Source: an uncultured Clostridia bacterium (GTDB lineage: Bacteria; Bacillota; Clostridia; Christensenellales; DTU072). From it: DNA of 64,000 nt. Both the position numbers and the translations under genes were made by a program. The notes under the pieces are model-generated. The model was given only the letters and a program-made list of their open reading frames with translations. It made no database searches and was not told where the DNA came from. The stretch lies in the NCBI GenBank assembly GCA_946621465.1, contig CAMOOO010000003.1:119389-183388 (forward strand), given 5' to 3'. Below are positions 2 through 41,591 of the stretch, piece after piece; the first letter of the stretch is position 1; each line of letters begins with the position of its first letter.

Positions 2-3000
2 TACTGGGTCTGCCCCGGATGCTCCCGTTATTTCTCCGATGAGAACGCCACCCGCGAGATCGTCGATAAAATAACCACCATTCCCATGGCGCCCCACGTT
101 ATGAAATATCATAGCGCGGTGCCGAATTCCTGTACCCAAGAAGGTAACATTGAATACTGGGGTTGTGAAAACTGCACCCTGAAATACAGCGATGCGGAAA
201 ACACGCACGAGGTCGTCGAAGTGACTATTCCCAAAGACAGTCACAACATGACCTACCACTACGCGGTCGATTCCACCTGTACTACGGAAGGCAACGTCGC
301 CTATTACGAATGCTCCAAGTGCCATCTGCATTATGAGGACACAGAGGGAGAAAATTTGCTTGAAAGCATCGCCGTTGCCAAGAAGGCGCACTCGATTAAA
401 CATCTCGACGACGAGGATGCTTTGAGTTGTATCGGTGTAGAGGCATACTATTATTGCGAAGACTGCGGAGCGACCTACAAAGACGCCGCCGGCACGGTAG
501 CTTATATAATCTCCGGAGAAACTTCTCATACAATGGTCCATACTCCGGCGGTAGAAGCCACCTGTACTTCGGCAGGTTCGAGAGAGTACTGGACTTGTAC
601 TTTGTGCCAATTCAAATATATGGACGAAAGAGGTACCGCTATCATTGAGACCGGCGACGAGATAATCGACGCTTACGGACACGCGGTCGAACACGTTTCG
701 GCACGGGCTGCTACCTGTACCGAAGACGGCATTGCCGAACATTATTACTGCCACCGTTGCGGACAATACTTTGTGGACGCTTCGGCAGAGACCGGAACGA
801 CGTTTAATGTTCTGAAGATCGAAAAGACCGGACATACCGCCGTTGCCGACGCGAGCGTCGCCGCGACTTGTACCAAAACCGGACTTACGGCAGGGTCGCA
901 TTGCTCCGTTTGCGGCGCTGTTATCACCGCGCAGGAGATAACGGAAAAAATACCGCACGACTACGTCGGTGGAAAATGCACCCAGTGCGAAGAGAACAAA
1001 ACGATTTCTATCAGCTTTTCTGCCGGTAGTCAGGAGCTGGAGGAACAGGATATAACGGCGAACGAGGCGTTTACCTTCCCTGTTCCGACAAAGAGCGGTA
1101 GTTATTTCGTCGGATGGGCGATCGGGACGACGGTCATTACCAACGACGAGGGAAAGAGTCTTGCCGTTTGGAGTTGGAGCTACGACGACTCGGTGGAAGT
1201 TACGGCAGTCTGGGAAGATGACACCGAAGACAGATCCTCTTGCGCTCGCGTCACCTACTATAACGTTTCCGGCGCGACCAACATCAATAACGTCTATCAG
1301 ATAAAGGGCTACGACGTTCTTCTTGCCGACCTGACGGATAGAGTAGGATTTACTTTTGTCAGATGGGAACATAACGACGCGGCAATAACCTATCTCCATC
1401 TGTCCGATGCCAACGTCGCGCTGTACGCCGTGTGGGAAAGAAAGGAATATACCATTTCCTTCGATTTCCAGGGCGGCAAAATGGAAAATCCCGATCTCAA
1501 CGAAGAATATGATGAACTGGAAGTGGATATCCCCTACGATACTTTGCTTGTTTGGGACGAGCTTGCCAGACCCACGAAGGCAGGAAGCACTTTCTTAGGG
1601 TGGTTCTTGAACGTTACGGATGAAACGCCGTATGCCGGAACGAATATGCCGGCGCAGAACATTAAACTGTACGCCAAATGGGAAGTTTATACCATTAAAA
1701 CTTTGGAATACACATCTCTGTACGAGATTAAAGAAAGCGACACGTTAAACGGCGATTTGTTTGGTATCCATATGGTGGACTCCGACGGAAACGAGACCCC
1801 GGTGAGCGTTACCGTTACCATTATCGAGGGCGCGAAAGAGGCGGGCAAAACCATTTCCGTAAGAATCGTAGTTCAAGGCAAATACAACAAAAAGAGAGTA
1901 ATTACGCTGACCGGAATCAAGGTATACGGCACGCCCACGTTGGTATTCGGCGAAGGCGAAAATGCATCTACCGAGCCGACGCTGACCCAATACAGTGAAA
2001 GCGACGAATTGGATGCGGCGTTCTTATCTGCGTCCGGTAAAGACAGCTTCTCAGGCGATACGCAGATCGTCGTTTACGGAGAGACGCAGATCATCGACGT
2101 AGAAAGCAAGAGTTATTCCGACCTTTCCGCTGCCGAGAAGGCGCAGACCGTTCCCGTCGAAGGGGGAGAAGCGCTCCTGTATAAAGAGGCTGCGGACGGA
2201 AGCGTTTTAATCAGAGAGGCTCTTCTGTACGGCGAAGAATGGGAGTACCTGTTGACTAAGGAGAATAAAAAGATCCACTCCGGTATTATAGATGATTGGG
2301 ACGTAAACAGTATCCCCGACGTCGACCTGGAAGAGGGTGGTACCGGAAAACTATACAAAGCCGATATCTACGGATACATTATGATCAGAAAACCCGCTTT
2401 GTATAAGAGTGAGGCGTTTGAAGAATATAGCGACATTATTTTGACCCACGAAGGAACGTGGGACCATTACGAAACGATAGTCATCCGTAGCGTCGACCTG
2501 GTCGGTAACTACGTAGAAAAGAAGATTGAAAACGTAAAGGTCTATTCCAAACCGGTTATCACCTTGGCTAACGAAGTTGTCGCCGTCAAAGCGGACACCG
2601 AAGTAACCGCAGAACTGTGGGGCGCTACCGCAAAAGACTCCTTTAATACCAGTCTGACGGTGGAATTTGCCTGCACCGGATCGAAAACGGTCGGAAACAA
2701 ACTGACGGTAACCTTCACGGCGGAAGACGGACACGGCAACGAAACGACGATAACGCGCGAAGTTAAAGTCCTGGGTACGCCCACGCTGGATCGTCCGACC
2801 AAGACCAGATTCTCCGAGTCGGAAGAGATCAATGCCGAAACGCTCGGATTGGTCGCTAAAGATTCCTGCGGCGACGAAATCGATATTGCCGATATAGAAG
2901 TCACCAAGAAAGATTCTTCAGCGCCGCAGGTAAAGGGCAGTTATTTGACTTATACCGTCGTTGCTACCGACGTCACCGGCAATTCTCTTACCAGAGATAT

Positions 3001-6000
3001 TACCGTTATGATTTATGACAAGCCGATCTTCACGGCGGACGATACTACGGTTGCTTTCCGCTACGGCTCGGATGCGGAGGACGCGGAGTCCTTTGGCGTA
3101 AGCTGCGTGGACGACTTCGGAAGACCGTTGATTGTCAGCGTCGTGCTTTTGTCCGGAAGTCTGGAACCGGGTACTACGCCGCAACTGAAATTCACCGCCT
3201 CCAACGTCGCCGGAATAGAAGACTATATCATCAGAGATTGTAAAGTTTATAGCCAATCGGATATTGAATTGACTTACAGACCGCTCGAAAGCAACGTCGT
3301 CCGTGTAGAGAGCGACGGTTCGGAATTCGGCGCGAGCGCGACGGGGTCCAATGCTTCCGAATGCGTCATTACCGTTTTGGACGTGAACGGAAACAAATTG
3401 GTCGGCGGAGTGGAGACCAGCATTATTTTGCGTGCGACTGACCCGGCAGGCAACTACAAAGACAGCGCCGTAATTGATAACATCTTCGTATACGACGTTC
3501 CCGTTGTGGAATTTGTCAGACACGATAAATTGTATTTGACGAGCGATGAAATGGCCGGTTATAACAACGGAACGCTTACGTTTGCCGCGATGTTCACCGC
3601 CAAAGACAGCTTTAACGAGGACGTCGATCTCAGCTTTACGGTAACAGGAACGACGGAGACGGAAATGACCGTTGAAGTAACTTCCGATCCTGACAACGCC
3701 GGAAACGTTTTCTCGCACGTCTACACCATTGCCATTCTTGCCGAAAATCAATCCATCCTCAAACTGAACGTCAACGGGAAAGTGGTAGAGGAAGAATACA
3801 GAGTAGTGAAAAACGGCAACGTTGACCTGCCCAACCTTTTCGAGGGATACACCTTTAACGGGTGGAAGTATCAAGGAACGGCCGTAACCGGTAGCGACGG
3901 TAAATTGACCAATTGGACGGAAGACGCCGACGTGTACACGTTGAATGCCGACGTTACTTCCAAACAATACACTGTGCACCTGTACGTCAACGATCAAGAG
4001 ATCGGTTCGGTCAAACTGACCTACGGTACCACCTTTAAATTGAATATTCCTTCGATGTCCACCGGACAATCCTTTGTCGGTTGGATGTTTAATAACGAAA
4101 GAATAACGGACGGCACCGGTACCAGCCTCGGCGTTTGGGAAACGGCCAACGAGGTGTACTTCGACGCCGATATCGTTACCACGCAATCGCTCGTTGAATT
4201 GTACTATGCAGACGGTACGTTGTGGACCACTCGTATGTTACTGTACGGCGAATCCTTCGATCTGCCCGTACCCAGCGAAGCCGGATACCTGTTCGAGGGT
4301 TGGTCGCTAGGTGACACCGTCATCACCGATAAGAGCGGAAAGAGCCTGGCGGTCTGGACCAGAACGGAAGCTAAATATACCCTCAGACCCAGACGTGATC
4401 TGGTGGAATACACCATTACCTATAACCTGAACGGCGGCTTGAACAACCCCAAGAACCCGTCCGCTTATTCGGTCAGAAACGTCGGTAGCGGTATTCAACT
4501 TTCCGACCCGGTCAAAGTTACGGACGTTTCGGAAACCTACACTATTAACTACACCAACGGTGGATACGACTACACCGCAACCTATACCATCTACGAATTC
4601 GACGGTTGGTATGCGGAAAGCACCTTCGTCAACCGCGTGCGCGTCATTACCATTGAAAAAGGAAACGTCGTTCTCTATGCAAAATGGGTGGAGACCGAGC
4701 GCACGGTGGAAGAAAACTATGCGTATATCTATAACAAAGAAAACGGAACGGTAGAATTCGGCAGCTATCCGCAGACGAAAGTGGAGAACAGCGATTTGAT
4801 CGACGCTCTGTCCTCTCATGCGGCGACGACGCCGTCTTCCAGCAATCCCAGCGTTCCGGGGTGGAGTTCTTACGGATTCTACATCAGTGGAGAAGTGACG
4901 CAGTATATCTGGTACTTCGACTACACGTACACTTCGGAAGAACATCCGGAATTCAACGGAAAATACAGAGGCGTGTACTTCGAGAACTATCGTCCGAACG
5001 ACATTACCGAGCTTTCGTCCATGTCGAAGAGCTATCAGGACGATAACGGATATCGCGTCGGAAAGATCCACTGGTTCAAGTATGAACCCATCGTGTGGAA
5101 CATTCTTTCCATTGAGGACGGTACGGCGTTTCTTTATACCGACATGATCCTTGATTCCCGTCAGATGAACGAGACGGACGGCGTAGCTTATGCCAACAGT
5201 TCAATCAGCGCATGGCTGAACAGCAGCGCCGGATTCTTTGGCGACGCAACGCTACTTGCCGAAGCTATCGTACCGACGGAGATTGCAACGGGAACGAATA
5301 AAAACGTGTTCCTTCTGTCCAAAGAGGACCTTTGCAACGTAGAGTACGGATTCAGCGCAAGCGAAGGCGCGACCGATCCGAGCAGACGTCAACAGGCGAC
5401 CGACTATGCCGCTTGCTTAGGTGCCTACATCAGCGGCTCCGGTAACTATTCAGGCAACAGCTCCTGGTGGCTGAGGACCGACTCCGGTACCGGTCACTAC
5501 TACATGGTCGGATATAACGGTTCCATTACCCACGATTCTTATAAGAAGACCTACCACGGCATCGTGCCGGCGATCAGAGTATCTTCCTCTTTGTTGTTCG
5601 AGTACGACAGTGTCAATAACGGATACGTAGTCGTAGGATACAACGGATTCGAGGACGTCATCGAGATCCCGAACGAATATTTGGGAGAGGACGTCATTGC
5701 TATCGGCGACTTTGCCTTTGCCAACAAGAACGTGCGTCACGTGACCCTCCCCGGCACGATCAGAACGATCGGAACCCACGCATTCTTCGGGTGTGAAAAC
5801 CTGCTCGGCATCACCCTCCCGGCGAGCTTGGAGTCCATTGACAACAAAGCCTTCTACGGATGCGTCCGGTTGACCACCATCGTCAACAAATCCAGTTTGG
5901 AAATTGTAAAGAACGAAACGAACGGGTACGTTGCCTTCTATGCCGAGTATATCTATGGTAGTTCTTATAACGTGACTATTTCCGAAGAGGGCATCATCGC

Positions 6001-6349
6001 CGTCAGCTCGACGAACGCGTTACTTATTTACGCTTTCGGGACGGAGGACTTAGTGGAGTTTACGGACGTTACCACGATCGGCAAATATGCCTTTATCGAC
6101 AGCGACAAAATAGCTTATCTTGACTTTGACGAGGACCTCGTCGCAATCGATGCTTCTTCTTTTGCAAACTGCACGGCGCTGACTTCCGTTACGATCGGAA
6201 TGACAAGCGGTTATAAGTGGTACTACACGACGAGCGTGGAAAATTGGCGTTCCAGAGCAAACGGAGACGAAGTGGATTTAAGCAGCGCGAGCGTTACTGC
6301 AAGCCTATTAAAACAAGGCGGCTATTTCTATAAGAAATTAGAAGAGTAA
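2..6349 (+). CDS. Giant cell-surface protein, 5'-truncated by the window edge. N-terminal Cys/His mini-module repeats, Listeria-Bacteroides-type repeats, Ig-like repeats, a WWLR-type domain, and C-terminal BspA-type leucine-rich repeats
   Basis: The frame stays open to position 2 (YWVCPGCSRYFSDENATREI precedes the first Met at 86), so the listed Met is not the true start. Repeated G[YF]xFxGW motifs are present (SYFVGWAIG, GFTFVRWEH, GYTFNGWKY, GYLFEGWSL, YEFDGWYAE). A 'SSWWLRTDS...GIVPAIRV' domain follows. The C-terminus carries AFxxCxxLxxItLP LRRs (AFFGCENLLGITLP, AFYGCVRLTTI). Confidence 0.8.
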   Translation, partial: YWVCPGCSRYFSDENATREIVDKITTIPMAPHVMKYHSAVPNSCTQEGNIEYWGCENCTLKYSDAENTHEVVEVTIPKDSHNMTYHYAVDSTCTTEGNVAYYECSKCHLHYEDTEGENLLESIAVAKKAHSIKHLDDEDALSCIGVEAYYYCEDCGATYKDAAGTVAYIISGETSHTMVHTPAVEATCTSAGSREYWTCTLCQFKYMDERGTAIIETGDEIIDAYGHAVEHVSARAATCTEDGIAEHYYCHRCGQYFVDASAETGTTFNVLKIEKTGHTAVADASVAATCTKTGLTAGSHCSVCGAVITAQEITEKIPHDYVGGKCTQCEENKTISISFSAGSQELEEQDITANEAFTFPVPTKSGSYFVGWAIGTTVITNDEGKSLAVWSWSYDDSVEVTAVWEDDTEDRSSCARVTYYNVSGATNINNVYQIKGYDVLLADLTDRVGFTFVRWEHNDAAITYLHLSDANVALYAVWERKEYTISFDFQGGKMENPDLNEEYDELEVDIPYDTLLVWDELARPTKAGSTFLGWFLNVTDETPYAGTNMPAQNIKLYAKWEVYTIKTLEYTSLYEIKESDTLNGDLFGIHMVDSDGNETPVSVTVTIIEGAKEAGKTISVRIVVQGKYNKKRVITLTGIKVYGTPTLVFGEGENASTEPTLTQYSESDELDAAFLSASGKDSFSGDTQIVVYGETQIIDVESKSYSDLSAAEKAQTVPVEGGEALLYKEAADGSVLIREALLYGEEWEYLLTKENKKIHSGIIDDWDVNSIPDVDLEEGGTGKLYKADIYGYIMIRKPALYKSEAFEEYSDIILTHEGTWDHYETIVIRSVDLVGNYVEKKIENVKVYSKPVITLANEVVAVKADTEVTAELWGATAKDSFNTSLTVEFACTGSKTVGNKLTVTFTAEDGHGNETTITREVKVLGTPTLDRPTKTRFSESEEINAETLGLVAKDSCGDEIDIADIEVTKKDSSAPQVKGSYLTYTVVATDVTGNSLTRDITVMIYDKPIFTADDTTVAFRYGSDAEDAESFGVSCVDDFGRPLIVSVVLLSGSLEPGTTPQLKFTASNVAGIEDYIIRDCKVYSQSDIELTYRPLESNVVRVESDGSEFGASATGSNASECVITVLDVNGNKLVGGVETSIILRATDPAGNYKDSAVIDNIFVYDVPVVEFVRHDKLYLTSDEMAGYNNGTLTFAAMFTAKDSFNEDVDLSFTVTGTTETEMTVEVTSDPDNAGNVFSHVYTIAILAENQSILKLNVNGKVVEEEYRVVKNGNVDLPNLFEGYTFNGWKYQGTAVTGSDGKLTNWTEDADVYTLNADVTSKQYTVHLYVNDQEIGSVKLTYGTTFKLNIPSMSTGQSFVGWMFNNERITDGTGTSLGVWETANEVYFDADIVTTQSLVELYYADGTLWTTRMLLYGESFDLPVPSEAGYLFEGWSLGDTVITDKSGKSLAVWTRTEAKYTLRPRRDLVEYTITYNLNGGLNNPKNPSAYSVRNVGSGIQLSDPVKVTDVSETYTINYTNGGYDYTATYTIYEFDGWYAESTFVNRVRVITIEKGNVVLYAKWVETERTVEENYAYIYNKENGTVEFGSYPQTKVENSDLIDALSSHAATTPSSSNPSVPGWSSYGFYISGEVTQYIWYFDYTYTSEEHPEFNGKYRGVYFENYRPNDITELSSMSKSYQDDNGYRVGKIHWFKYEPIVWNILSIEDGTAFLYTDMILDSRQMNETDGVAYANSSISAWLNSSAGFFGDATLLAEAIVPTEIATGTNKNVFLLSKEDLCNVEYGFSASEGATDPSRRQQATDYAACLGAYISGSGNYSGNSSWWLRTDSGTGHYYMVGYNGSITHDSYKKTYHGIVPAIRVSSSLLFEYDSVNNGYVVVGYNGFEDVIEIPNEYLGEDVIAIGDFAFANKNVRHVTLPGTIRTIGTHAFFGCENLLGITLPASLESIDNKAFYGCVRLTTIVNKSSLEIVKNETNGYVAFYAEYIYGSSYNVTISEEGIIAVSSTNALLIYAFGTEDLVEFTDVTTIGKYAFIDSDKIAYLDFDEDLVAIDASSFANCTALTSVTIGMTSGYKWYYTTSVENWRSRANGDEVDLSSASVTASLLKQGGYFYKKLEE

Positions 6350-6376: not shown

Positions 6377-6412
6377 GCGCACTCCGCTGAAAAAATCGGA
6401 GTGCGTTTTTTA
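6377..6412 (+). terminator. Rho-independent terminator of the giant surface-protein gene
   Basis: Inverted repeat gcgcactccg / cggagtgcg followed by a T-run (ttttttat). Confidence 0.75.
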
Positions 6413-6475: not shown

Positions 6476-6504
6476 TTGACCGATAATAAAAATTGTGATA
6501 CTAT
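6476..6504 (+). promoter_or_regulatory. Sigma-A-type promoter for the acyl-CoA synthetase leader
   Basis: TTGACC, 17 nt spacer, TACTAT, preceded by TGa (extended -10). The predicted +1 falls about 7 nt downstream, on the A of the ATG at 6511. Confidence 0.5.
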
Positions 6505-6510
6505 ATGACC

Positions 6511-6588
6511 ATGAAATTCGCAAGTATGGAAAAAGTGGTCCGTGTAGTCGTACGTGTAAATGTCGTAGTAGAGACGCCATTACATTGA
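6511..6588 (+). CDS. Putative leaderless Val-rich leader peptide (MKFASMEKVVRVVVRVNVVVETPLH)
   Basis: 25 codons with 9 Val in a 12-codon run. No Shine-Dalgarno sequence, but the ATG sits at the predicted transcription start. It lies just upstream of alternative hairpins and a terminator. An alternative ATG at 6505 would lie upstream of the predicted start. Confidence 0.3.
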   Translation: MKFASMEKVVRVVVRVNVVVETPLH

Positions 6589-6617
6589 CGCTGCTTGTGA
6601 AGTTCCTAAAACAATGA

Positions 6618-6648
6618 AAGGCACCTTAACAAGCAGGGTGCCTTTTTT
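6618..6648 (+). terminator. Leader terminator (putative attenuator) upstream of the acyl-CoA synthetase
   Basis: aaggcacc / ggtgcctt stem followed by tttttt, 45 nt before the RBS of the 6693 gene. The loop sequence acaagcag is complementary to ctgcttgt at 6591-6598. Confidence 0.55.
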
Positions 6649-6692
6649 AAGAGCATTATATATAAGGTAAGAAGGATCAAAGGAGAAAAGAA

Positions 6693-8336
6693 ATGAACTT
6701 TTTAAATAAGTTTCTGGACAGGATCGAGTATGACAGTTACGAGGATTTTGCGGAGAACTGTAAAATAAAAGTTCCGGAAAAGTTCAATTTTGCTTATGAT
6801 ATCATCGACGAGTACGCACGGCTTGCTCCGGAGAAGAAAGCCATTCTTTGGTGCAGCGACAAAGGGGAAGAAAAGGTAATAACCTTTAAAGAACTGTCCC
6901 TTTTGAGTAACAAAGTCGCCAACGTATTGACCTCGAAAGGACTCAAGAAGGGCGACATTGTCATGACCATGCTCAACCGTAGATGGGAGTACTGGGTGAC
7001 CATTATGGCTTGTCATAAAGCAGGTATCGTCATCGTTCCGGCGACCTTCCTTCTGACCGAAAAAGATATTGAATACCGTATTAAGGGCGCCGGCGTCAAG
7101 TGCCTTATTTCTATCAACGAGGACTCCGTTATAAAGAATATCAACGACACCAAGCCCACCCTCCCTGACGACTTCATTTATTACACAATCGGAGAAAGAG
7201 AGGGGTACGAAAACTTTTCCGAGGCGATCGAAAAAGCGAGCGACGTATGGGAAAAGGTGGAGACCGACCTCTACGATGAGAGCGTGGTCTACTTCACTTC
7301 CGGTACGACCGGCTATCCCAAAATGGTCGCGCATAACTTTCTTTACCCCCTCGGCTTTATCTACAACGCCGTTTATTGGCACAAAGTCATCGACGACGGA
7401 CTGCACTTTACCTCTTCGGAATCGGGCTGGGCAAAATGCAGCTGGGGTAAACTGTACGGACAGTGGATCGCCGGGACCTGCCTCTTTATCTACGACTATT
7501 TCCATAAATTTCAACCCACCGATTTGTTGGAACGCATCGAAAAGTACCGCATCGACACCTTCTGCGCTCCGCCCACGATTTATCGGTTTTTAATTAAAGA
7601 AGACCTTTCTAAGTACGACCTGTCTTCCCTTTCGCACTGCTCGACGGCAGGCGAAGCGCTTAACGCCGAAGTCTGGAAACAGTTCTACGCCGCGACCGGT
7701 CAGAAAATTTATGAAGGTTACGGACAGACGGAAACCAGTATTATCATGGGTACGTTCTATATGATGGATATCCGCGCCGGATCCATGGGTAGACCGTCGC
7801 CGCTGTATGACGTCCACCTTGTCGACGACGAAATGAACGACGTCGAACCGGGCGTAGTTGGGGAGATCGTAATCAAAATACACCAGCCGCAGTGCAGTCT
7901 GGTCTATAAATATCACAATAGTCCGGAATTGACGGAAGAGAGATTGGGAGCAGGGTATCACCACACCGGCGACCTTGCTTACTATGACGAAGATGGTTAT
8001 TACTGGTTTGTCGGAAGAACGGACGACGTTATTAAATCTTCCGGTTACCGTATCGGACCGTTCGAGGTCGAGAGTACGCTTATGGAGCATCCCGCCGTTT
8101 TGGAATGCGCTATCACCGGCGTGCCTGATCCGCAACGCGGTCAGGTGGTCAAAGCAACCATCGTTTTAGCCAAAGGGTACCAAGCCTCCGATGAATTGGC
8201 TAAGGAACTGCAAATTTACGTTAAAACGCATACCGCGCCCTATAAATATCCGCGTATCGTTGAGTTCGTCGACGAACTGCCCAAGACCATCAGCGGTAAA
8301 ATCAAGCGTAACGAAATCCGCAACGCGAATAAATAA
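6693..8336 (+). CDS. AMP-forming acyl-CoA synthetase (medium/short-chain acyl-CoA ligase family)
   Basis: AMP-binding motif YFTSGTTGYPKMV, YGQTET, GDLAYYDEDGYYWFVGRTDDVIKSSGYRIGPFEVES, and C-terminal PKTISGKIKRNEIR. RBS aaaggagaaaag. Confidence 0.85.
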   Translation: MNFLNKFLDRIEYDSYEDFAENCKIKVPEKFNFAYDIIDEYARLAPEKKAILWCSDKGEEKVITFKELSLLSNKVANVLTSKGLKKGDIVMTMLNRRWEYWVTIMACHKAGIVIVPATFLLTEKDIEYRIKGAGVKCLISINEDSVIKNINDTKPTLPDDFIYYTIGEREGYENFSEAIEKASDVWEKVETDLYDESVVYFTSGTTGYPKMVAHNFLYPLGFIYNAVYWHKVIDDGLHFTSSESGWAKCSWGKLYGQWIAGTCLFIYDYFHKFQPTDLLERIEKYRIDTFCAPPTIYRFLIKEDLSKYDLSSLSHCSTAGEALNAEVWKQFYAATGQKIYEGYGQTETSIIMGTFYMMDIRAGSMGRPSPLYDVHLVDDEMNDVEPGVVGEIVIKIHQPQCSLVYKYHNSPELTEERLGAGYHHTGDLAYYDEDGYYWFVGRTDDVIKSSGYRIGPFEVESTLMEHPAVLECAITGVPDPQRGQVVKATIVLAKGYQASDELAKELQIYVKTHTAPYKYPRIVEFVDELPKTISGKIKRNEIRNANK

Positions 8337-8361: not shown

Positions 8362-8408
8362 AGTACGAGGAGGAAACCCTTTTGTAAAATGGTTATCCTC
8401 CTCGTACT
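8362..8408. terminator. 13-bp perfect hairpin. It has a U-tract only when read on the minus strand
   Basis: agtacgaggagga / tcctcctcgtact. On the minus strand it is followed by attttattct. On the plus strand no T-run follows. Confidence 0.45.
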
Positions 8409-8620
8409 CGCCGATTCCGGCTGCGTCTCTGGTCGTAATCCTAGATTTCTTCCGACTTTGGCTACCGACAGCGCACTGTGCTGTCAGCTTAACGCGTCGT
8501 CCTCCCTCTTCCGAAAACATTTACTATAATAATCTGAATTCGGTTCCTCTGTTTATGATTGCAACTTTGAAGGGAATTGTTGGTCGAGGATTTCGATTTC
8601 TTACGTACTTTATCTAAAAA

Positions 8621-9946
8621 TTATTTTCCTACGCAGAAGTTTTTGAAAACGTTGTCGATGACAGCGTCGCTGACGTTCGTTCCGGTGATTTGTCCGAGGG
8701 TGTCCAGTGCGGAACGGATATCGGAGAGGGTGCATTCTACGGGTGCGCTTCCGAAGGTAGCCAAAGCGGCGGCAAGATACTTTTTGCACTCGGTCAGTGC
8801 GGCAATGTGCCGCTCGTTGGTCAGGATGCCTTGCGAATAGACGGCGTCGTAATTGAGAATGGACAGTATTTTATCCGTGACTGTCGTCACACCTTCGCCG
8901 GTGTTTGCGCAGATTTCTATTGCGCCCGGACGGGAATAGACTTTTTTATCCGATTTGTTGCCGATAAGAATGTGCTTCTTGTCCCCAATAAGGTCGAATA
9001 TCTCCCTTTCTTCCGGCGTTAGCGGTTGGGATAGGTCAACCATAAAGAGGATGAGGTCTGCCCCTTCTATGGCCTTTTTGGAGCGTTCTACTCCGATTTT
9101 TTCGATGACGTCTCCGCCGTCTCGAATGCCGGCGGTGTCAAGGAAGTTGAGTTTAATACCGCCTAGTTCAATGCTCTCGCAAAGAACGTCGCGCGTGGTG
9201 CCGGCGATGTCGCTGACAATGGCCCTATCCGATTGTACAAGGGCGTTTAATAAGGTGCTTTTTCCTACGTTCGGTAATCCGACGATGGCGATATTCGCAC
9301 CCAAACGAACGGTTTTGGCATAGGTCGTCGAGGCGAGCAGGGCATCCGCTTCTTTGAGGGCAAAACGCAGTGCTTCTTCCGCTTGCGGAAAGGTGTCTTC
9401 TTCCGTTTCTTCCGGATAGTCCAATTTTACTTCCAACATCGCCATGGCGGCAACGAGGCGTTTTTCACTCTCGTAGAGACCTTGTAATAGTTTTCCGTCG
9501 GCAAGCCTGTAAGCGTTATAAATTGCGCTTTCGCTCTCGGCGTTAATGACGTCGAGGAGTCCTTCTGCCTCGGCCAGTGTCAGCTTGCCGTTGAGAAATG
9601 CGCGCTTTGTGAATTCTCCTGCCTGAGCCGGGCGCGCTCCCTTTTCTCTTAGCAAACGCACGATGGCTTCGGTCACGGCGATGCCGCCGTGGCAGTGCAA
9701 TTCCGCCACGTCCTCTCCGGTATAGGAATGAGGGGCGGCAAAAAACACGGCGAATGCGCGCTCGGAAAAATTCTTCCCGTTGACCCTGCCCAGGTACATA
9801 TAGTTGGGTTGCGGCGAAGAGGGGAGTTTGGCAGAAGAAAAGACGCTTTGCACGATAGCAAAAGCGTCTTCACCGCTTACTTTAATAATATTGATAGCCG
9901 ATGCCGTAGCGATGGAAGTCGCAACGGCGACAATGGTGTCACTCAC
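8621..9946 (-). CDS. mnmE: tRNA modification GTPase MnmE (TrmE)
   Basis: G1 motif GLPNVGKSTLLN, DTAGIR, NKSD, C-terminal FCVGK, and position in the jag-yidC-rnpA-rpmH cluster. Confidence 0.93.
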   Translation of the reverse strand: MSDTIVAVATSIATASAINIIKVSGEDAFAIVQSVFSSAKLPSSPQPNYMYLGRVNGKNFSERAFAVFFAAPHSYTGEDVAELHCHGGIAVTEAIVRLLREKGARPAQAGEFTKRAFLNGKLTLAEAEGLLDVINAESESAIYNAYRLADGKLLQGLYESEKRLVAAMAMLEVKLDYPEETEEDTFPQAEEALRFALKEADALLASTTYAKTVRLGANIAIVGLPNVGKSTLLNALVQSDRAIVSDIAGTTRDVLCESIELGGIKLNFLDTAGIRDGGDVIEKIGVERSKKAIEGADLILFMVDLSQPLTPEEREIFDLIGDKKHILIGNKSDKKVYSRPGAIEICANTGEGVTTVTDKILSILNYDAVYSQGILTNERHIAALTECKKYLAAALATFGSAPVECTLSDIRSALDTLGQITGTNVSDAVIDNVFKNFCVGK

Positions 9947-9956
9947 AGTTGATTAC

Positions 9957-10757
9957 TTAAAAGAACTTTCTCTTTTCGTAGCCGTAGCTTTTGGTACGGG
10001 AGGGACCCTTTCTGCGGAAAGAAGAATCGGTACCGTAGCTCATCTGTCCGCTCTTGGGAACGATGATGACGTGACGCTCGCTTCCTTCGCCTTCGGAACG
10101 GGTCTCCGCTTCATAACTGTTTTGCAAAGCGGTATGGATGATGCGGCGTTCATAGCTGTTCATCGGTTCGAGAGCGATCTCTTTGTGCGTTTTGAAGGCT
10201 TGCGAAGCCAAACGACGAGCCATAGCGATCAGCGTCTTTTTTCTTCTTTCACGGTAGAAGTCCGCGTCAACGATAACGCTGATATGGGGTCCTTCGTTTT
10301 TCTGATTGATATAATGGCTGGTCAGGACCTGAATAGCCTCCAACGTTTCTCCCTTGTAACCGATGAAACGTTTAGCATCCTCGCTGCCGATGTAGAAGCA
10401 AAGTTCGTCATCGCGGATTTTCGCCTCGAATTTATCGGAAGCGCCGGCGGCTTTCATAAGTCCGGCAAAGAACTGTCTGCCTTCTTCCAATTTTTCTTTC
10501 AGTGTTTCATAGCTTACCTGTCCCTTTTCGGGAACGGCGGTTTCGGTCTCTTCGGTAGCCTCGGCGGTTTCGCTCAGTTCCGGTACTTCGGCGAGGTCCT
10601 CTTTGGGAGTGATACGGACGACGGCTTTGGAAAAAATGCCACCCGTTGCGATTACTTCGATATCTACTTGATCTTCTGTCAGGTTCAAACTCTCCAAACC
10701 TTTCTTTTTTGCGGCATCTACGTTGGACGCCTTGAATTCATAGGATTGTTTTTCCAT
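9957..10757 (-). CDS. jag: Jag/KhpB RNA-binding protein (Jag_N + KH + R3H)
   Basis: KH-like GYKGETLEAIQ, R3H-like NSYERRIIHTAL, and conserved position downstream of yidC. Confidence 0.88.
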   Translation of the reverse strand: MEKQSYEFKASNVDAAKKKGLESLNLTEDQVDIEVIATGGIFSKAVVRITPKEDLAEVPELSETAEATEETETAVPEKGQVSYETLKEKLEEGRQFFAGLMKAAGASDKFEAKIRDDELCFYIGSEDAKRFIGYKGETLEAIQVLTSHYINQKNEGPHISVIVDADFYRERRKKTLIAMARRLASQAFKTHKEIALEPMNSYERRIIHTALQNSYEAETRSEGEGSERHVIIVPKSGQMSYGTDSSFRRKGPSRTKSYGYEKRKFF

Positions 10758-10779
10758 ATTTATATCTCCTTAAATGTGG

Positions 10780-11874
10780 TTATTTTTTGTAAGTAGTGGA
10801 TAAAATACGGTCTTTCTCGGCTTCGTCCTTCTTTTTGGTGATGAGAGTATACGTCAAATTGAGAATGATGGAGAAAAACATATTTACGAACATATACAGC
10901 GTGAACGCTGCAGAGTAGAACAGAGCAAAGACGAACATCATTACCGGCATAATGTATTGCATCATTTTTGCCTGGGATTGTTGCGCCTTTTTTTGTTCTT
11001 CCGTCTGTCCCGGTGTGGTGACGGTGGCGTTTTGCTGTTGTTGCATCATCGGTTTATTGATGAATATGGATGCGACGTTCAGTAAGAGAACGAGGACGGG
11101 CAGAATGAGATACCCGTTCCAACCGGTGTATTCTCTGTTCAATCCGCCCATGACGTTGTTGTATTCGTCTTCGCGGACCTTTACCGAGCTGTTAGTCTTT
11201 CCGGCGGTCATTATGGGAGAATCCCAGTTATCGCCGGCAAAGATATTTTTGACCCAGAAGAAAGACTCTTTGTATTCGCTGTTATATAGATCTACGACGG
11301 CTTTCTGTCCGGCGGCTATGGCAGTTTTGTCGATGGTATCTCTTTGTTCGTCGGTCAGCTCCGCGTCATCTTCCAGCCCGAGTGCTTTTACCTCTTTGTC
11401 GTATTCTACTTCATAAACGGTCTTGTATTCGGCCTTCAGAGCGTTGTAGGTGGTGGCGTTGTGCGTTGCGACCGCGCCGTTGAAGCCGGCAAAGACGATA
11501 AAGAATACCACCATTGTGATAACGAGAGGCAGGCAGGAACCGAACATGGAGTATTTATATTTTTTATAAACCTCCCGTTGTTTCTGCGCAAGAAGTTCCC
11601 GATTGCTACCGCACTGTTTGGTGATCTTTTCCAGTTCCGGTTTCATTGCCTCCATTTTCTTGGCGTTTTTACGCATTACCGATTTTTGCCAGATATCGAG
11701 GGGGGAGACGAGAACTTTCAAAAACAGAGTAAACATAATAGTGGTCACGCTGAACGCACCCACTACCGTCCAATTATCCGACCAAGTTTTCACCCACGCG
11801 TACAGGTATTTGTAAATCAAATCGCCTATCGCGTTGCTGAGTGCATTGGCGGAGAGTAAATTCATAAAGTCCAT
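10780..11874 (-). CDS. yidC: YidC/Oxa1-family membrane protein insertase
   Basis: Multi-pass membrane protein located between yidD and jag. Lys-rich C-terminal tail typical of Gram-positive YidC/SpoIIIJ. Confidence 0.85.
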   Translation of the reverse strand: MDFMNLLSANALSNAIGDLIYKYLYAWVKTWSDNWTVVGAFSVTTIMFTLFLKVLVSPLDIWQKSVMRKNAKKMEAMKPELEKITKQCGSNRELLAQKQREVYKKYKYSMFGSCLPLVITMVVFFIVFAGFNGAVATHNATTYNALKAEYKTVYEVEYDKEVKALGLEDDAELTDEQRDTIDKTAIAAGQKAVVDLYNSEYKESFFWVKNIFAGDNWDSPIMTAGKTNSSVKVREDEYNNVMGGLNREYTGWNGYLILPVLVLLLNVASIFINKPMMQQQQNATVTTPGQTEEQKKAQQSQAKMMQYIMPVMMFVFALFYSAAFTLYMFVNMFFSIILNLTYTLITKKKDEAEKDRILSTTYKK

Positions 11875-12733: not shown

Positions 12734-12762
12734 TTGCAAAAAGGGGTGTTTTGTGGTATAAT
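12734..12762 (+). promoter_or_regulatory. addBA promoter
   Basis: TTGCAA, 17 nt spacer, TATAAT with TGg extension. The ATG at 12770 lies at the expected +1, and there is no Shine-Dalgarno sequence in between. Confidence 0.6.
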
Positions 12763-12769
12763 GACGGGC

Positions 12770-15700
12770 ATGAGACTGTACTGTATCGACTCCAATACCA
12801 CCCTCGGAGGACATCGCGGACTGCTCGAGAGATTGAAAAAAAATCATCTCCCCGGTTCCAAACATATTTTTATCGTTCCCGATAGATATACCCTTGGCGT
12901 GGAAAAGGAAATTTGCGAGAGTTGCTTTCCCGACGGGACTTTTTCCGTCGATACGTTCAGTTTTACTCGTTTGGCGATAAAAGGTCTGGGGAACGTCGCT
13001 CTCGACTGTCTCACCAAAGAGGGTACGGTGCTTCTTTTGCACCGGGTGATCGGAGAATGTAACGACAGACTGGTCTATTATAAAAATATCCGCAGCGTTG
13101 GTTTCGCACGGGAACTGTTCGCCGCCATAGCCTCCCTTCGTTCAGGGGGTATCACGCCGGACGCTATAAGGGAGAAGCTGCCTGACTTTGAGAAGGGTAC
13201 CGCCGATAAATTGGCCGATATCGCGTTACTGTATGAAGAATACGAAAAGGCGCTCGTTGGCAGACTGGACACCGTAACCAGGGTGGAACTATTGGAAGAA
13301 AGGCTGGCGGAGATCCCGTGGATTGCCGAAAGTCACGTCTACGTTCTCGGTTTTAACGTCTATTCCGACTTGCAGATTCGTTTGATAAAAAAGATGTTGT
13401 TGGTCTGCCCCTCCGTTTCCATTTCCTTTTGCAGGGGCATGGGCGGAAGTAACGTCTTTTGTTTTCCGTCTGATCAGCGTAGCCTCCTTATCGACTGGTG
13501 CAAAGAAAAGGGCGTCCCCGTATTGTACGAACGCACCGAAGAACAACTGTTAGAGCCGTTTAAGACGCTCCATAAGGAGATGTTCGGCTTCGGAGAGCCG
13601 AAGGACGTCTTTACCCCCGAACAAAAACAAAAAGTCCGGGTGTTTTCGGCGGAAAACCCATATGAAGAAGTCAAATGCGCCTGTCGAGAAATTCGGCAGC
13701 TTGTTTTTTCGTCGGGATATAGATATAAGGATATCGCCGTCAGTTGCAACGATGAAAATTATCTACCCGTTTTGCGGACCATTTTCGCCCGTTTCGGCAT
13801 ACCCTGTTTCACCGATGAAAAATTCCCGGTAAAGAGGTCGTTTGCCGCCCGATTCCTGTTTTCGGCCTTGCAGGCGATCTGTTCGGAATACGCTCTTTCC
13901 GACGTTATCGAGTGTATCCGATCCCCCCTTTCCGGTATTTCGTTTGAGGAAGTCCGAGTGCTGGAAAACTACTGCATTAAGTATAACGTATCCTATTCCG
14001 GACTGCTTTCTCCCTTTACCTACGGGGAGTGCGAGGAGGCGGAATCGGTCCGTCAAAAGGCAATATCCGTCTTAAACCGCGTACCCCGTAGCGGGCGCAT
14101 AGAGGACTATTGCGACTTTATGACGTCCGTCGCTTGTTCGCCGGAAATGGAGAAAATAAAAGAGGAACATACCGAAGGAGCGTCCAACGCCCTTCTTGCC
14201 TACATGGACACCGAAGGTTTCCTTTCGGTGGCGGAAGAAATCAAAAAGCTGTGCGCCGGTATGGAAATGACCCCGGCGGCGTTTGCCGAATTATTGTCCT
14301 CTACGCTGGAAGGCATGAGCATAAGTTTATTGCCCCAATATATTGATTGCGTCTTTATCGGGAATACGTCGGACAGTCGATTTTCCGACGTAAAAGCCCT
14401 GTTCGTGTTGGGGGCAAACGATGGAAACTTCCCCGTGCAAACGGCCGATCCGCTGATTATCAGCTGTTTCGACAGCGAGATCATGCGCCAAAACGGACTG
14501 CACGTCTATCCTGCGCCGGCAGAAGCCAATCTGTTTGAGAAGTTCGCCGTGATCGATCTGTGTTCCAAACCGGAGCGTCTGTACGTCGGGTACGGACGAT
14601 CGGGCTTTTCGGGAGAGAAGAAAGAGCCGGGCGAGGGCGTTAAAGAAATACTACGGCGGCTTTTCATTAAAGAAAAACCTCTCTTTACCTATTACGACTT
14701 TACTGACGAAGAGCGGCTTTTGTACATTCTTTCCTGTCCGGAGAACGCCTACTATGAATACGTTTCCGGCAAAATACCTCCTGCGTACGCCGATGCCGTC
14801 AAAGGGTATCTTACGGCAAAGGGGTACGACCTGGAAGAAGTAAAAAGAGACGACCGGTGTCGACCGCTGGATGGGTATCGGAAAGAAGGGGACGGGTACG
14901 GTATTTCCGTCACCACCTTAGAACATTATTTCCGCTGTCCCTATTATCATTTTTTGAACGACGTATTAAAGGTCAGGCCGAAAGAGGAAGGACAGTTGCA
15001 GCTCAATGAAAAGGGCAGTTTGGTCCATGCGGTCTTAGAGGATTATTTCCGCACTAATGTAAGGGATCTGAAAACGGCAACCGATATTCCTGCGCGGATA
15101 AGCAACAGCATAAATAAGATCTTTTCCCGGGCGGAATACGTCCGCTTCTTTGTCGACGCCGTCTCCGCTTATGAAATGAACGGACTGAAAAAAGAATGCG
15201 CCGAGGTACTGAAAGCACTGACGGAGAACGCTATCAATTCCCAATTCGTCCCCACCTATTTCGAGGTGCGGTTCGGACAAAAGGAAAAGATCAAATTGAC
15301 GGTGAACGGAGAGAACTTTTATTTCAGCGGCGTAATCGACCGCGCCGACGTCAGCGGAAAGGATATCGTCATCATCGACTACAAAACGGGCGCGATCGAA
15401 CCGGAATACGAAAAGATATTCGACGGAGAAAAGATACAGCTATACGTCTACCTCAAACACTTTTTGGATAAAGGGTATTCTCCGGCAGGGACGTTCTATC
15501 AGCCCATCCACGGCGGATATTCGGCAAAAGGCAGGTCGTACGCGATGCAGGGGCAGATGCGATCCGATGCGGATACCTACCTTCGACTGGACCAAAGAAT
15601 GAAAAGTCCGGAGGACGGCACCTTTGAGAGCGACACCGTTTTCTTTCCTTGCAATTATAAAAACGGAGAAATCTCTTTCCCCAGGAATAAAAAGTATCTT

Positions 15701-15916
15701 TTGCGAGAAGACGACTTCAGAACAATATCCGATTATGTATTCAGGGCAGCCGAACAGGCAATTTCGGATATCCAAAACGGAGATATTGACAAAAATCCGA
15801 TAGAGGGGAAGTGCGAATACTGCCCCTACGTAAAGATGTGCGGAGAACAGACGGAGCGGAAAAGACCGTCGATTACCATAGAAGACTTCGGGAAGGGAGA
15901 GGAAGATGGAATTTAA
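12770..15916 (+). CDS. addB: ATP-dependent helicase/deoxyribonuclease subunit B (AddB)
   Basis: C-terminal RecB-type nuclease with Fe-S cysteines (YFRCPYYHFL ... IIDYKTG ... GKCEYCPYVKMCG), immediately upstream of and overlapping addA. The start is moved from the track's TTG at 12734 (which is the -35 hexamer) to the ATG at 12770 (MRLYCIDS...). Confidence 0.88.
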   Translation: MRLYCIDSNTTLGGHRGLLERLKKNHLPGSKHIFIVPDRYTLGVEKEICESCFPDGTFSVDTFSFTRLAIKGLGNVALDCLTKEGTVLLLHRVIGECNDRLVYYKNIRSVGFARELFAAIASLRSGGITPDAIREKLPDFEKGTADKLADIALLYEEYEKALVGRLDTVTRVELLEERLAEIPWIAESHVYVLGFNVYSDLQIRLIKKMLLVCPSVSISFCRGMGGSNVFCFPSDQRSLLIDWCKEKGVPVLYERTEEQLLEPFKTLHKEMFGFGEPKDVFTPEQKQKVRVFSAENPYEEVKCACREIRQLVFSSGYRYKDIAVSCNDENYLPVLRTIFARFGIPCFTDEKFPVKRSFAARFLFSALQAICSEYALSDVIECIRSPLSGISFEEVRVLENYCIKYNVSYSGLLSPFTYGECEEAESVRQKAISVLNRVPRSGRIEDYCDFMTSVACSPEMEKIKEEHTEGASNALLAYMDTEGFLSVAEEIKKLCAGMEMTPAAFAELLSSTLEGMSISLLPQYIDCVFIGNTSDSRFSDVKALFVLGANDGNFPVQTADPLIISCFDSEIMRQNGLHVYPAPAEANLFEKFAVIDLCSKPERLYVGYGRSGFSGEKKEPGEGVKEILRRLFIKEKPLFTYYDFTDEERLLYILSCPENAYYEYVSGKIPPAYADAVKGYLTAKGYDLEEVKRDDRCRPLDGYRKEGDGYGISVTTLEHYFRCPYYHFLNDVLKVRPKEEGQLQLNEKGSLVHAVLEDYFRTNVRDLKTATDIPARISNSINKIFSRAEYVRFFVDAVSAYEMNGLKKECAEVLKALTENAINSQFVPTYFEVRFGQKEKIKLTVNGENFYFSGVIDRADVSGKDIVIIDYKTGAIEPEYEKIFDGEKIQLYVYLKHFLDKGYSPAGTFYQPIHGGYSAKGRSYAMQGQMRSDADTYLRLDQRMKSPEDGTFESDTVFFPCNYKNGEISFPRNKKYLLREDDFRTISDYVFRAAEQAISDIQNGDIDKNPIEGKCEYCPYVKMCGEQTERKRPSITIEDFGKGEEDGI

Positions 15917-18900: not shown

Positions 18901-19115
18901 TGGTCCAGGGCGTAATCGACCTGTTAGTCGCTCTGCCGGACGACACTTTCATGTTGGTGGATTACAAAATGAGCGGTTTGGGACCCGAAAAGCTCAAAAC
19001 CAAATACGCCGAGCAGATTGAACTTTACAGAGACGCCGTCCAAAACATCCTTCATAAACCGGTTTCCGTTGCCTTTTTGTACAACCTGAACCTGGGTTTC
19101 AGCGTCCGTTTATAG
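15906..19115 (+). CDS. addA: ATP-dependent helicase/nuclease subunit A (AddA, UvrD/Rep superfamily 1)
   Basis: Walker A SASAGSGKTTVM, FIDEYQDTN, LNDNYRS, TQHGSKGLEFPVVFL, and a C-terminal nuclease motif LVDYKMS. Confidence 0.92.
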   Translation: MEFKWSEEQKAVFDTRGNVLVSASAGSGKTTVMIEKILRLIEEGQDLRRILVMTFSRASAMDMKTKLVEKMYKRLSFGGETERIRKQLENIPFANISTINSFCYTLAKRYFSAAGIDPSCSIMDDKEQESLFDACLDRTIKKQLEKKSPDPSFIRALGYFSEKRSIGGIKRVICSLHTFLSAQEDPEEFLGRANGMEKTEEYYLERMRRKLFRLQTEGREILREKREQNYPARDEVYRDCILRMENATKGGIREFFSEISGMEVPARNPHSSDCKKGFLLSELCDRCGEFLAKMRKLKSETESDRALYEQGDSDEEIKKVVIKLYQENKAEYEDRKKQRSVMDFNDAERAALNILKWEEYREEIRKSFDYIFIDEYQDTNYLQEALLVGLSRGDNLFVVGDVKQAIYHFRYAEPEIFVHRKKRYENVSEGNSRLLNDNYRSCNRILTFTNEVCAEVMTDLFGGVDYRAEAMLHSGLGEEGAEDAVRIYTYPEEETVPVPVENVYRVKTGSKIAKRDREAAFIADEIARQHARGRKYEEFAVLFKKRKGIPGVAKELKKRGIPYFVQQDKKSTLPERETIIDCLRLLLNDFDDIAMINVLTEMFGFGAKELLDVRLSSEKSFSEAVLCYQGPHGEKLAEFREQIVKWRFDAEYLTVADLMREIIKSGYDAVLMKKGVIGQINAFILFVEQQADKMSLGEFIRYYDTVYDGNITPAPPSSVTLMTQHGSKGLEFPVVFLPYSTAAKRTRGQRESIVCDRDLGIALYRYSDDFKMEKTFSLYVMAMKKRAEEQESDLRLAYVAFTRAKEKLIITGMEKNYNGEAEDAACVMDWLLYAKQRNGELEKYFLPMPETEDKEEVPCAVQPVQLDLTKLEKTYPFEKSTKTYAKTSVSGILQQEESKGVRTLPAESAQKAEVGNAMHAVLRFIDFSAQGKEEVAFEIDRMVKEGLLTERERELADCQKIAEVLSAPEMAPAKSNPLYREYPFIAYVHPKDNPVDKILVQGVIDLLVALPDDTFMLVDYKMSGLGPEKLKTKYAEQIELYRDAVQNILHKPVSVAFLYNLNLGFSVRL

Positions 19116-41517: not shown

Positions 41518-41591
41518 TGGCAGGAGTAGTAAGAATCGAACTTACGCCGAAGGAGTCAGAGGCCTTCGTGCTACCATTACACCATACTCCA
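41518..41591 (-). tRNA. tRNA-Gln (anticodon CUG), CCA encoded
   Basis: Hand-folded cloverleaf. Acceptor UGGAGUA/UACUCCU. D stem GUGU/GCAC. Anticodon loop CUCUGAC. T arm GUAAG-UUCGAUU-CUUAC. Discriminator G. 74 nt. Confidence 0.8.

Follow-up and report, generated by a model that had tools for sequence, protein, structure and literature searches.

What decides whether a solitary acyl-CoA synthetase gene in an uncultured clostridium is transcribed, and what purpose would be served by placing that decision behind a run of valine codons? The question is raised by a 64,000-nucleotide (nt) stretch of contig CAMOOO010000003.1 (positions 119,389 to 183,388, assembly GCA_946621465.1, an uncultured Clostridia bacterium of the Christensenellales), here called the window, in which the gene of an AMP-forming acyl-CoA synthetase (the ligase) is preceded by a valine-rich mini open reading frame (ORF) and by sequences able to form alternative hairpins. 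An earlier note on this DNA had read the arrangement as a valine-sensing leader-peptide attenuator controlling the synthetase, and this core reading is supported by the conserved ORF, terminator, antiterminator and promoter described below. With a probability of roughly 80%, the element is a ribosome-mediated (leader-peptide) transcription attenuator that senses the charging of Val-tRNA and lies upstream of a branched short-chain acyl-CoA synthetase. Judged by sequence comparison, it is a new family within a well-known class, conserved among relatives and absent from Rfam 15 and from the literature searched.

In the mechanism proposed, transcription would begin at or beside A6511 from the extended -10 promoter and the 25-codon ORF would be translated as the RNA emerges. 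With Val-tRNA scarce, the ribosome would stall within the run of nine valine codons (6535-6570) and would either cover an upstream segment, region 1, or part it from region 2, which begins just past the stop codon; region 2, thus freed, would pair with region 3 once region 3 is made. With region 3 sequestered the terminator could not close, and the polymerase would run on past the U-tract (6643-6648) into the ligase gene, which would then be expressed. With Val-tRNA plentiful, the ribosome would reach the stop codon at 6586-6588 and cover region 2, and after its release, or without translation, region 1 would pair with region 2. Region 3 would be free in either case, the terminator would form and transcription would end at about 6648. 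What the reading of the window and the comparison with its relatives contribute to this scheme is the ORF, the codon run, three alternative helices with their conservation and covariation, a promoter that is likewise conserved, and a gap before the ligase too short to hold another (Table 1).

Table 1. Elements of the leader, its regulated gene and the terminator that precedes them, in window coordinates.
Feature	Positions	Strand	Details
Sigma-70-type promoter	6476-6504	+	TTGACC 6476-6481, 17-nt spacer, TACTAT 6499-6504; extended -10 TGaTACTAT 6496-6504 (TG 6496-6497)
Leader ORF	6511-6588	+	MKFASMEKVVRVVVRVNVVVETPLH*; 25 codons; stop 6586-6588; A6511 is the predicted +1
Region 1, candidate anti-antiterminator	6517-6526	+	TTCGCAAGTA; codons 3-6; pairs with arm 1 at 6592-6601
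Regulatory codon run	6535-6570	+	codons 9-20; 9 Val in 12 (GTG, 3 GTC, 5 GTA)
Region 2 (arm 1, antiterminator 5' arm)	6591-6602	+	CTGCTTGTGAAG; begins 2 nt past the stop codon
Region 3 (arm 2, antiterminator 3' arm)	6625-6636	+	CTTAACAAGCAG; complementary to region 2
Attenuator terminator	6616-6648	+	12-bp stem 6616-6627/6635-6646, 7-nt loop, U-tract to 6648 (RNAfold)
Shine-Dalgarno GGAG of the synthetase gene	6682-6685	+	sequence read
Regulated gene, AMP-forming short/medium-chain acyl-CoA synthetase	6693-8336	+	547 aa; Pfam AMP-binding + AMP-binding_C
Intrinsic terminator of the upstream 2087-aa surface-protein gene	6377-6411	+	GCGCACTCCG / CGGAGTGCG + T6; sequence read

Each part that the earlier note had located in the window was found again: the promoter TTGACC-17-TGaTACTAT with the ATG at 6511, the seventh nt past the -10 hexamer, on the predicted +1, by reading of the sequence and by a consensus promoter scan; the mini-ORF with nine valines in twelve codons; the complementarity of the two arms, in which arm 1 matches the reverse complement of arm 2 at 11 of 12 positions (the mismatch being G6599/A6628); and the terminator hairpin with its T-run, to which RNAfold assigns about -16.0 kcal/mol. 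On its own the promoter match is weak (7 sites against 3.5 expected in 3 kb). Another ATG in the same frame, at 6505, follows the -10 hexamer by only 1 nt and should therefore be absent from the transcript. A simple terminator scan did not list the hairpin that RNAfold gives, probably because the A:U base of the stem takes up part of the T-run. On its 5' side the leader transcription unit is, as read from the sequence, bounded by the strong terminator of the 2087-aa gene, for which an Rfam search returned partial PyrR/aspC-like terminator alignments; on the other side the ligase gene is followed by the convergent genes mnmE-jag-yidC. The unit appears to consist of the leader and one gene, the ligase being monocistronic.

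The recurrence of the arrangement carries the reading furthest. Orthologous loci were gathered from genome contigs, metagenome contigs and exact-protein look-ups, and 16 distinct loci are considered throughout (the window, L001-L006, L034, L039-L042 and L120-L123, with L035 a near-identical copy of L034). In all 16 the same arrangement stands directly 5' of the ligase gene, the ligases being 68-95% identical to that of the window and the carriers being uncultured Clostridia/Christensenellales from gut and rumen samples (human, chicken, ruminant). Every leader repeats four parts. The promoter combines a -35 TTGAC[C/A] with an extended -10 TGnTAnnAT, spaced by 17-18 nt; a short ORF (18-26 codons) comes next, then the arm GC[U/C]UG[U/C][A/G]AG, and last its partner CU[U/C][A/G]CA[A/G]GC, which supplies the loop and top of a hairpin that ends in T5-T8. 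The genes beside the leader and ligase vary from locus to locus (metH, thiF, a surface protein), which indicates that leader and ligase move as one. Between the T-run and the ligase ATG lie only 17-45 nt, too few for a promoter, so that the ligase would be expressed only through read-through. A regular expression for the leader motif, run over 763 kb of sequence, matched only 5' of the ligase, apart from one chance-like match in L077, and a scan of the intergenic DNA of the window for other mini-ORFs with amino-acid runs found none, the valine run being the sole case. The recurrence in 15 other loci, together with the shuffle tests given below, argues at the level of sequence that the arrangement is not due to chance.

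The comparison across orthologous leaders that the earlier note had suggested gave both of the features it looked for: a Val or Val+Ile run kept in 14 of the 16 loci, and an antiterminator with compensatory changes. The antiterminator helix, formed by regions 2 and 3, is 95.6% paired across the 16-sequence alignment (A2), against 30-55% in controls with a slid register, and RNAalifold predicts the same helix unprompted. Four of its ten pairs have changes on both sides: in L121/L123 one U-A pair has become C-G, and in L040/L041/L120 a different one has. The duplex of the two arms is worth -12 to -17 kcal/mol and in every locus beats 1000 shuffles of the spacer, at p<0.001 in the window and at p<=0.006 in 15 of 16 loci. 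The window itself differs from all of its orthologues by matched 1-nt insertions in both arms (G6599 and A6628), from which its G/A mismatch results; G6599 can pair with C6519 of region 1, and the relatives have TTT where the window has TTC.

The terminator hairpins are predicted in 16 of 16 loci at -9.4 to -20.1 kcal/mol, each followed by T5-T8, and their stems differ wholly between subclades (GGCACC, GGCGCC, GACACC, GGTATC, AAATCGATTTTC, AAATCGGTTTTC) while the pairing is always kept. Region 3 takes in all 7 nt of the loop of this hairpin together with the top 3 nt of its 5' arm and 2 nt of its 3' arm, and the lower 9 bp of the terminator stem lie outside the overlap. On the modelled structures terminator and antiterminator are mutually exclusive through the 3+2 nt overlap and sequestration of the loop; by geometric reasoning the lower stem could not coexist with the antiterminator either, because the resulting pseudoknot would leave a 1-nt linker across an 11-bp helix.

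A further element, region 1, was missed by the earlier note. Its duplex with region 2 is worth -12.3 kcal/mol in the window, and the pairing of arm 1 with nt 7-15 of the ORF reaches 97% in a transcript that stops immediately short of arm 2. The same fold leaves arm 1 paired at 46-100% with the ORF or the 5' untranslated region (UTR) in all 16 loci, the main partner being the 5' end of the ORF (mostly nt 7-15) in about 12 of the 16, the Ile/Val codons in L040/L120 and the 5' UTR in L005. With this fourth element the leader can, as modelled, adopt the classical 1:2 / 2:3 / 3:4 layout. Co-transcriptional folding was approached with transcripts ending just after arm 2, in which ribosome footprints were masked. 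In the window the probability of the antiterminator is 1.00 with a ribosome on any valine codon and 0.00 with a ribosome at the stop codon, and the claim that a ribosome stalled on the run would leave the arm free to compete with the terminator is thus borne out by the model.

The purpose of such a switch is a separate matter, on which the ligase itself has some bearing. Valine and isoleucine have isobutyrate and 2-methylbutyrate, respectively, as their carbon skeletons. The best PDB match of the ligase is 3ETC, the Methanosarcina acetivorans Macs enzyme MacsMa (E=6e-192; residues 3-545 against 27-576 of 3ETC_A; by eye roughly half of the residues are identical over the full length), and both MacsMa and the Staphylococcus aureus enzyme MbcS, the closest characterised relatives, prefer alpha-branched C4/C5 acids: MacsMa prefers 2-methylbutyrate (PMC10455477), while MbcS selects 2-methylbutyrate and isobutyrate and acts poorly on isovalerate and butyrate (PMC10026030). 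This preference matches the leaders, which are rich in valine, sometimes in isoleucine and never in leucine. Less certain, and argued by analogy with these relatives, is the substrate of the ligase: isobutyrate, with 2-methylbutyrate as a probable second, which the cell would obtain from the gut or rumen. The acyl-CoA so formed would undergo ferredoxin-dependent reductive carboxylation to 2-oxoisovalerate, from which valine would be made. Rumen anaerobes are known to turn branched acids into amino acids by reductive carboxylation. For isovalerate and leucine, the route is mentioned in PMC7356843. This isobutyrate-to-valine purpose is put forward tentatively, at somewhat less than even odds. 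Two findings count against the metabolic role. First, the best NCBIfam model, MbcS (NF047394), is matched at 474.7 bits, below its equivalog cutoff of 850. Second, genes for branched-chain amino acids (BCAA), for 2-oxoisovalerate:ferredoxin oxidoreductase (VOR) and for fatty acids were not found in the 64-kb window, so that it is homology alone that argues for this role.

The same attenuator could serve another purpose, in which the acyl-CoA would replace valine-derived primers for branched-chain fatty acids (BCFA): the ligase would supply isobutyryl-CoA or 2-methylbutyryl-CoA as primers and a lack of valine would signal a lack of primer. Christensenella membranes are rich in iso-branched fatty acids, and the best NCBIfam match just given fits the same purpose, in that MbcS enables BCFA to be made from isobutyrate and 2-methylbutyrate supplied from outside (PMC10026030, PMC11167679). 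This purpose is held to be somewhat less likely, for two reasons: first, a sensor of Val-tRNA charging would report most directly the need of valine for protein synthesis; second, the carboxylation route to amino acids is, as said, established in rumen anaerobes. Under the first purpose, valine supply, the attenuator would reveal what the cell wants the gene for, and the testable prediction follows that the ligase serves that supply. Many rumen anaerobes need branched-chain volatile fatty acids, which they convert to BCAA, and the activating enzyme is poorly assigned; if the prediction is true, it names this long-unassigned enzyme of the route from branched-chain volatile fatty acids to amino acids. 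The proposition as a whole, in which the attenuator, with its leaderless leader peptide and loop-sequestering antiterminator, is regulatory evidence that Christensenellales-like Clostridia of gut and rumen use external isobutyrate (and 2-methylbutyrate) as a source of valine (and isoleucine), with uncharged tRNA-Val switching on an ATP-dependent ligase, is correspondingly speculative and is held with low confidence.

The ORF bears on whether the valine run acts as codons or as RNA. Outside the Val or Val+Ile run the leader peptides diverge between subclades; those predicted are MKFASMEKIVRVVVVVGVVETTSY (L001), MKIASTVKVLHVAVKVVVVKPTAL (L003), MNFAGMEKVVRIVVVNVVVSMSI (L006), MHVTRLYTLVEVVTVVGVRV (L004), VTAKLFNVIVETVVVGVVVG (L005), MKLTSREVAVVTVVVVGVER (L042), MTKQSNSGFNVNVVVDVVLVVVAV (L034), MNKTFLQAVVVVVTVVVG (L122), MKRSNVKNIVVSIVVVVVLAVVTVCG (L041) and, with an Ile+Val run, MKINSVNTIIVSIVAVIPAVVTVCG and MKSSNVKNIIVSVVAIIPAVVTVCG (L040 and L120). 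Within the closest clade the N-terminus MKFASMEK is kept at the amino-acid level, and over codons 1-14 of the six closest loci the ORF frame has 51 synonymous and 50 non-synonymous codon changes (51/101), against 11 and 105 (11/116) and 9 and 109 (9/118), or about 9%, in the other two frames. An excess of synonymous change confined to the ORF frame supports translation. In all 16 loci there is a start codon, either with a Shine-Dalgarno (SD) sequence or at +1, and an in-frame stop upstream of arm 1. The leaderless start at the +1 ATG that the earlier note had predicted recurs in six close loci (the window, L001, L002, L039, L003 and L006), where the ATG stands exactly 6 nt from the -10 hexamer, with neither an SD nor room for one; the other ten have the same ORF behind a 5' UTR of 9-34 nt with an SD at the right distance. 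The sequences support a translated ORF and, in the clade of the window, putative leaderless initiation at the start site predicted. Valine codons across the leaders (n=127) are GTA 53, GTC 51, GTT 13 and GTG 10. GTA is a minor valine codon in genes of the window (5/36 in the ligase gene, 34/177 in the 2087-aa gene). The bias to GTA and GTC could reflect tuning to one tRNA-Val isoacceptor, or a constraint of RNA structure.

It is conceivable that the ORF is incidental and that the GUN-rich stretch is the binding site of a protein or ligand, in a switch akin to those of TRAP, PyrR or the riboswitches. GUA and GUC triplets at a 3-nt period could be read by a multimeric RNA-binding protein, and the arms are unusually conserved in primary sequence (GCUUGUAAG / CUUACAAGC). 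However, such a switch is very improbable given the retention of start codon and in-frame stop before arm 1 in 16 of 16 loci, the synonymous excess in the ORF frame only, the lack of an Rfam match and the conservation of the run in its Val/Ile coding and not in its nucleotide sequence. A TRAP-like reading of the run in particular was rejected: the window has about four (G/U)AG triplets and the GTC-rich orthologues fewer, whereas TRAP needs 9-11 of them, 2-3 nt apart and overlapping the antiterminator (PMC3064811). A reading of the inverted repeat as a DNA operator was likewise set aside as unlikely, since the spacing of the arms varies from about 21 to 32 nt.

Several results weigh against the valine attenuator and need to be set beside the evidence for it. 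Folded to equilibrium at full length, 11 of the 16 leaders are dominated by the terminator, and in the window the terminator has a probability of 0.94 and the antiterminator 0.00. The comparison of energies proposed in the earlier note therefore goes against the upstream pairing and, taken alone, would contradict the reading. Given that the terminator wins at equilibrium, the switch must be kinetic and decided before region 4, the partner of region 3 in the terminator, emerges. The trp attenuator of E. coli behaves likewise, its 3:4 helix being much more stable than 2:3 and its choice kinetic. Full-length equilibrium folding with ribosome masks was discarded as uninformative for a co-transcriptional switch, and the folds of shorter transcripts were used instead.

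A second difficulty lies in the distance from the stop codon to arm 1, which is 0-4 nt in seven loci (the window and six relatives) and 9-16 nt in the other nine. In those nine a ribosome at the stop codon leaves arm 1 unmasked, with an antiterminator probability of about 0.8-1.0. The claim that a ribosome at the stop would mask the arm thus holds for the window and six relatives and fails for the nine, and stop-codon masking is ruled out as a universal rule. In three of the long-spacing loci (L004, L005 and L122) the naked RNA too favours the antiterminator. The OFF state of the long-spacing loci would need a kinetically trapped, re-formed 1:2 pairing, which is weak in some (L005, z=+1.1), and the region 1 pairing clearly beats shuffles only in the leaderless clade. 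By hand count, the last valine codon stands at a steadier distance from arm 1, about 17-23 nt. Read-through of the first stop to a second in-frame stop past arm 1 was considered for these loci and rejected; it fits L122 and L005 and is inconsistent across loci. Nor is the comparative evidence uniform. The covariation of the antiterminator stems from only two or three independent events, the valine run is lost in L123 (70% identity) and it is weak in L121 (5 Val only). Lastly, it is from DNA sequence that one predicts where transcription starts, that the ORF is translated, that ribosomes stall on it, that transcripts end at 6648 and which way the response to valine goes.

In the leader of L123 (L123:1760-2040, with the ligase at 2040), whose host is GC-rich, the promoter and a strong terminator are retained, the arms can still be recognised and the 22-codon ORF is preceded by an SD, but the valine run has decayed (MTFQADAIRVLSETLPVISGRV; 3 Val, 2 Ile); L121 comes from the same sample. 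By this comparison the attenuator may be degenerating, or shifting in specificity, in the L121/L123 lineage.

The long-spacing loci also lend what plausibility it has to a reversal of the logic, in which stalling on valine would lead to termination and free translation to read-through, the ligase being made when valine is abundant: in them the antiterminator is the default fold and is left unmasked by a ribosome at the stop codon. Against this, in nearly every locus the antiterminator has a probability of about 1 when a ribosome covers any valine codon, and in the clade of the window it is abolished by a ribosome at the stop codon; besides, with valine in excess it would be futile to make an AMP-forming ligase that acts on what valine fermentation yields. 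The reversed response therefore deserves very little credence. Least credible of all is a mini-ORF whose small hydrophobic product is functional and whose terminator is its own, the ligase being expressed independently or by leaky read-through with no sensing, since, for all that MKFASMEK is conserved in the closest clade and the L034 ORF is called as a gene in one metagenome annotation, the peptide is not conserved across subclades beyond its valine run, the 17-45 nt between T-run and ligase give no room for a promoter, the conserved helix that competes with the terminator would have no role, and the element stays with the ligase while the neighbouring genes change.

The valine attenuator may be compared with the enterobacterial attenuators trpL, ilvL (of ilvGMEDA) and ivbL (of ilvBN). 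In common with them the leader has a short ORF in which codons for the amino acid to be sensed are clustered, an intrinsic terminator before the structural gene, a terminator more stable than the antiterminator and hence a kinetic choice, and, in the clade of the window, a stop codon just before region 2; its four RNA regions allow, as theirs do, 2:3 and 3:4 pairings and a candidate 1:2 pairing. It differs in several respects: here the host belongs to the Clostridia (Christensenellales-like); the run consists almost wholly of Val (in one subclade of Val+Ile), where theirs are mixed Ile/Val/Leu; a single ligase gene of the salvage type is controlled, in place of an operon for amino-acid biosynthesis; six loci have what appears to be a leaderless version of the ORF; region 3 takes in chiefly the terminator loop with 3 bp, as against a whole terminator arm; and there is neither sequence similarity nor an Rfam match. 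A search of the window and 12 orthologous loci against Rfam 15 gave no gathering-score match for the leader, whose best sub-threshold score at a permissive E-value was 22 bits (E=0.4), and literature searches found neither a Val leader in Clostridia or Christensenella nor a leader linked to an acyl-CoA synthetase.

The earlier note had called leader-peptide attenuation uncommon in Firmicutes. A Firmicute precedent is nevertheless documented in the leucine-rich attenuator peptide of S. aureus ilv-leu, which responds to a branched-chain amino acid (PMC5794164), while the combination of host lineage and gene seen here was not found in the literature searched. The S. aureus attenuator, likened by its description, differs in its Leu codons, in its BCAA biosynthesis operon and in acting with CodY. 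In Corynebacterium, read-through into ilvBNC is controlled by an upstream ORF with Ile/Val/Leu codons and alternative hairpins, a three-hairpin attenuator (PMC10272879, PMC11857589), and actinobacterial leader peptides form a related case (PMC1262725); ilvBNC differs in its actinobacterial host, in its target, an acetohydroxyacid synthase operon, and in belonging to another RNA family (ilvB-II motif). Leaderless short ORFs with polycysteine runs, at the 5' end of mycobacterial transcripts, attenuate downstream genes in response to cysteine (bioRxiv 10.1101/834739). They are leaderless and carry a run of one amino acid, as here, and differ in sensing cysteine and in occurring in Actinobacteria; the likeness drawn here concerns the ORF. 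Thus the mechanism itself is a textbook one, and it is the setting, in bacterial group and in gene, that was previously undescribed: the carriers are uncultured gut Clostridia, a group with little known RNA regulation, and the regulated gene is a single acyl-CoA ligase, not an amino-acid biosynthesis operon. We know of no leader peptide in front of either MacsMa or MbcS. The family also holds leaderless and SD-led versions of the same leader ORF, which makes it a natural comparison of types of start site.

The leader is absent from ligase homologues of 67% identity or less (L036, L037, L124, L125 and L043-L118) and from one homologue of 68% identity, L119. In the latter, tandem heptamer blocks, (AAAAGTG)n then (GTTACTC)n, stand in place of the leader just 5' of the ligase (L119:2200-2500); the contig contains Ns and the blocks are possibly an assembly artefact. 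In L007, L008, L009, L102 and L106, homologues of 52-57% identity without the leader, the preceding gene has a cupin-like C-terminal motif (...GDSIYF..S..PHGM...FLAII*) and ends a few nt before the ligase, which suggests, from gene order, that a protein-based regulator or co-transcription may replace attenuation in those homologues.

Elsewhere in the window an Rfam search detected no T-box or riboswitch, and a tRNA gene at 41521-41591 (- strand) is the only gathering-level match in the 64 kb. Three very large predicted surface proteins (86-6349, 31075-33951 and 54036-57980) have BspA-type LRR_5 and Listeria-Bacteroides (Flg_new) repeats, one of them also with a transglutaminase-like core. Clusters of the mnmE-jag-yidC type, here at 8621-11874 on the - strand, are typical of the neighbourhood of the replication origin in many bacteria; addB/addA (12734-19115) and glnS (20609-22255) follow. 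Between the convergent ligase and mnmE genes, at 8364-8410, lies a long perfect hairpin (GTACGAGGAGGA ... TCCTCCTCGTAC); the + strand lacks a T-run there, the - strand has a T-rich tail, and on its sequence the hairpin is possibly a terminator for the - strand genes, or a bidirectional one.

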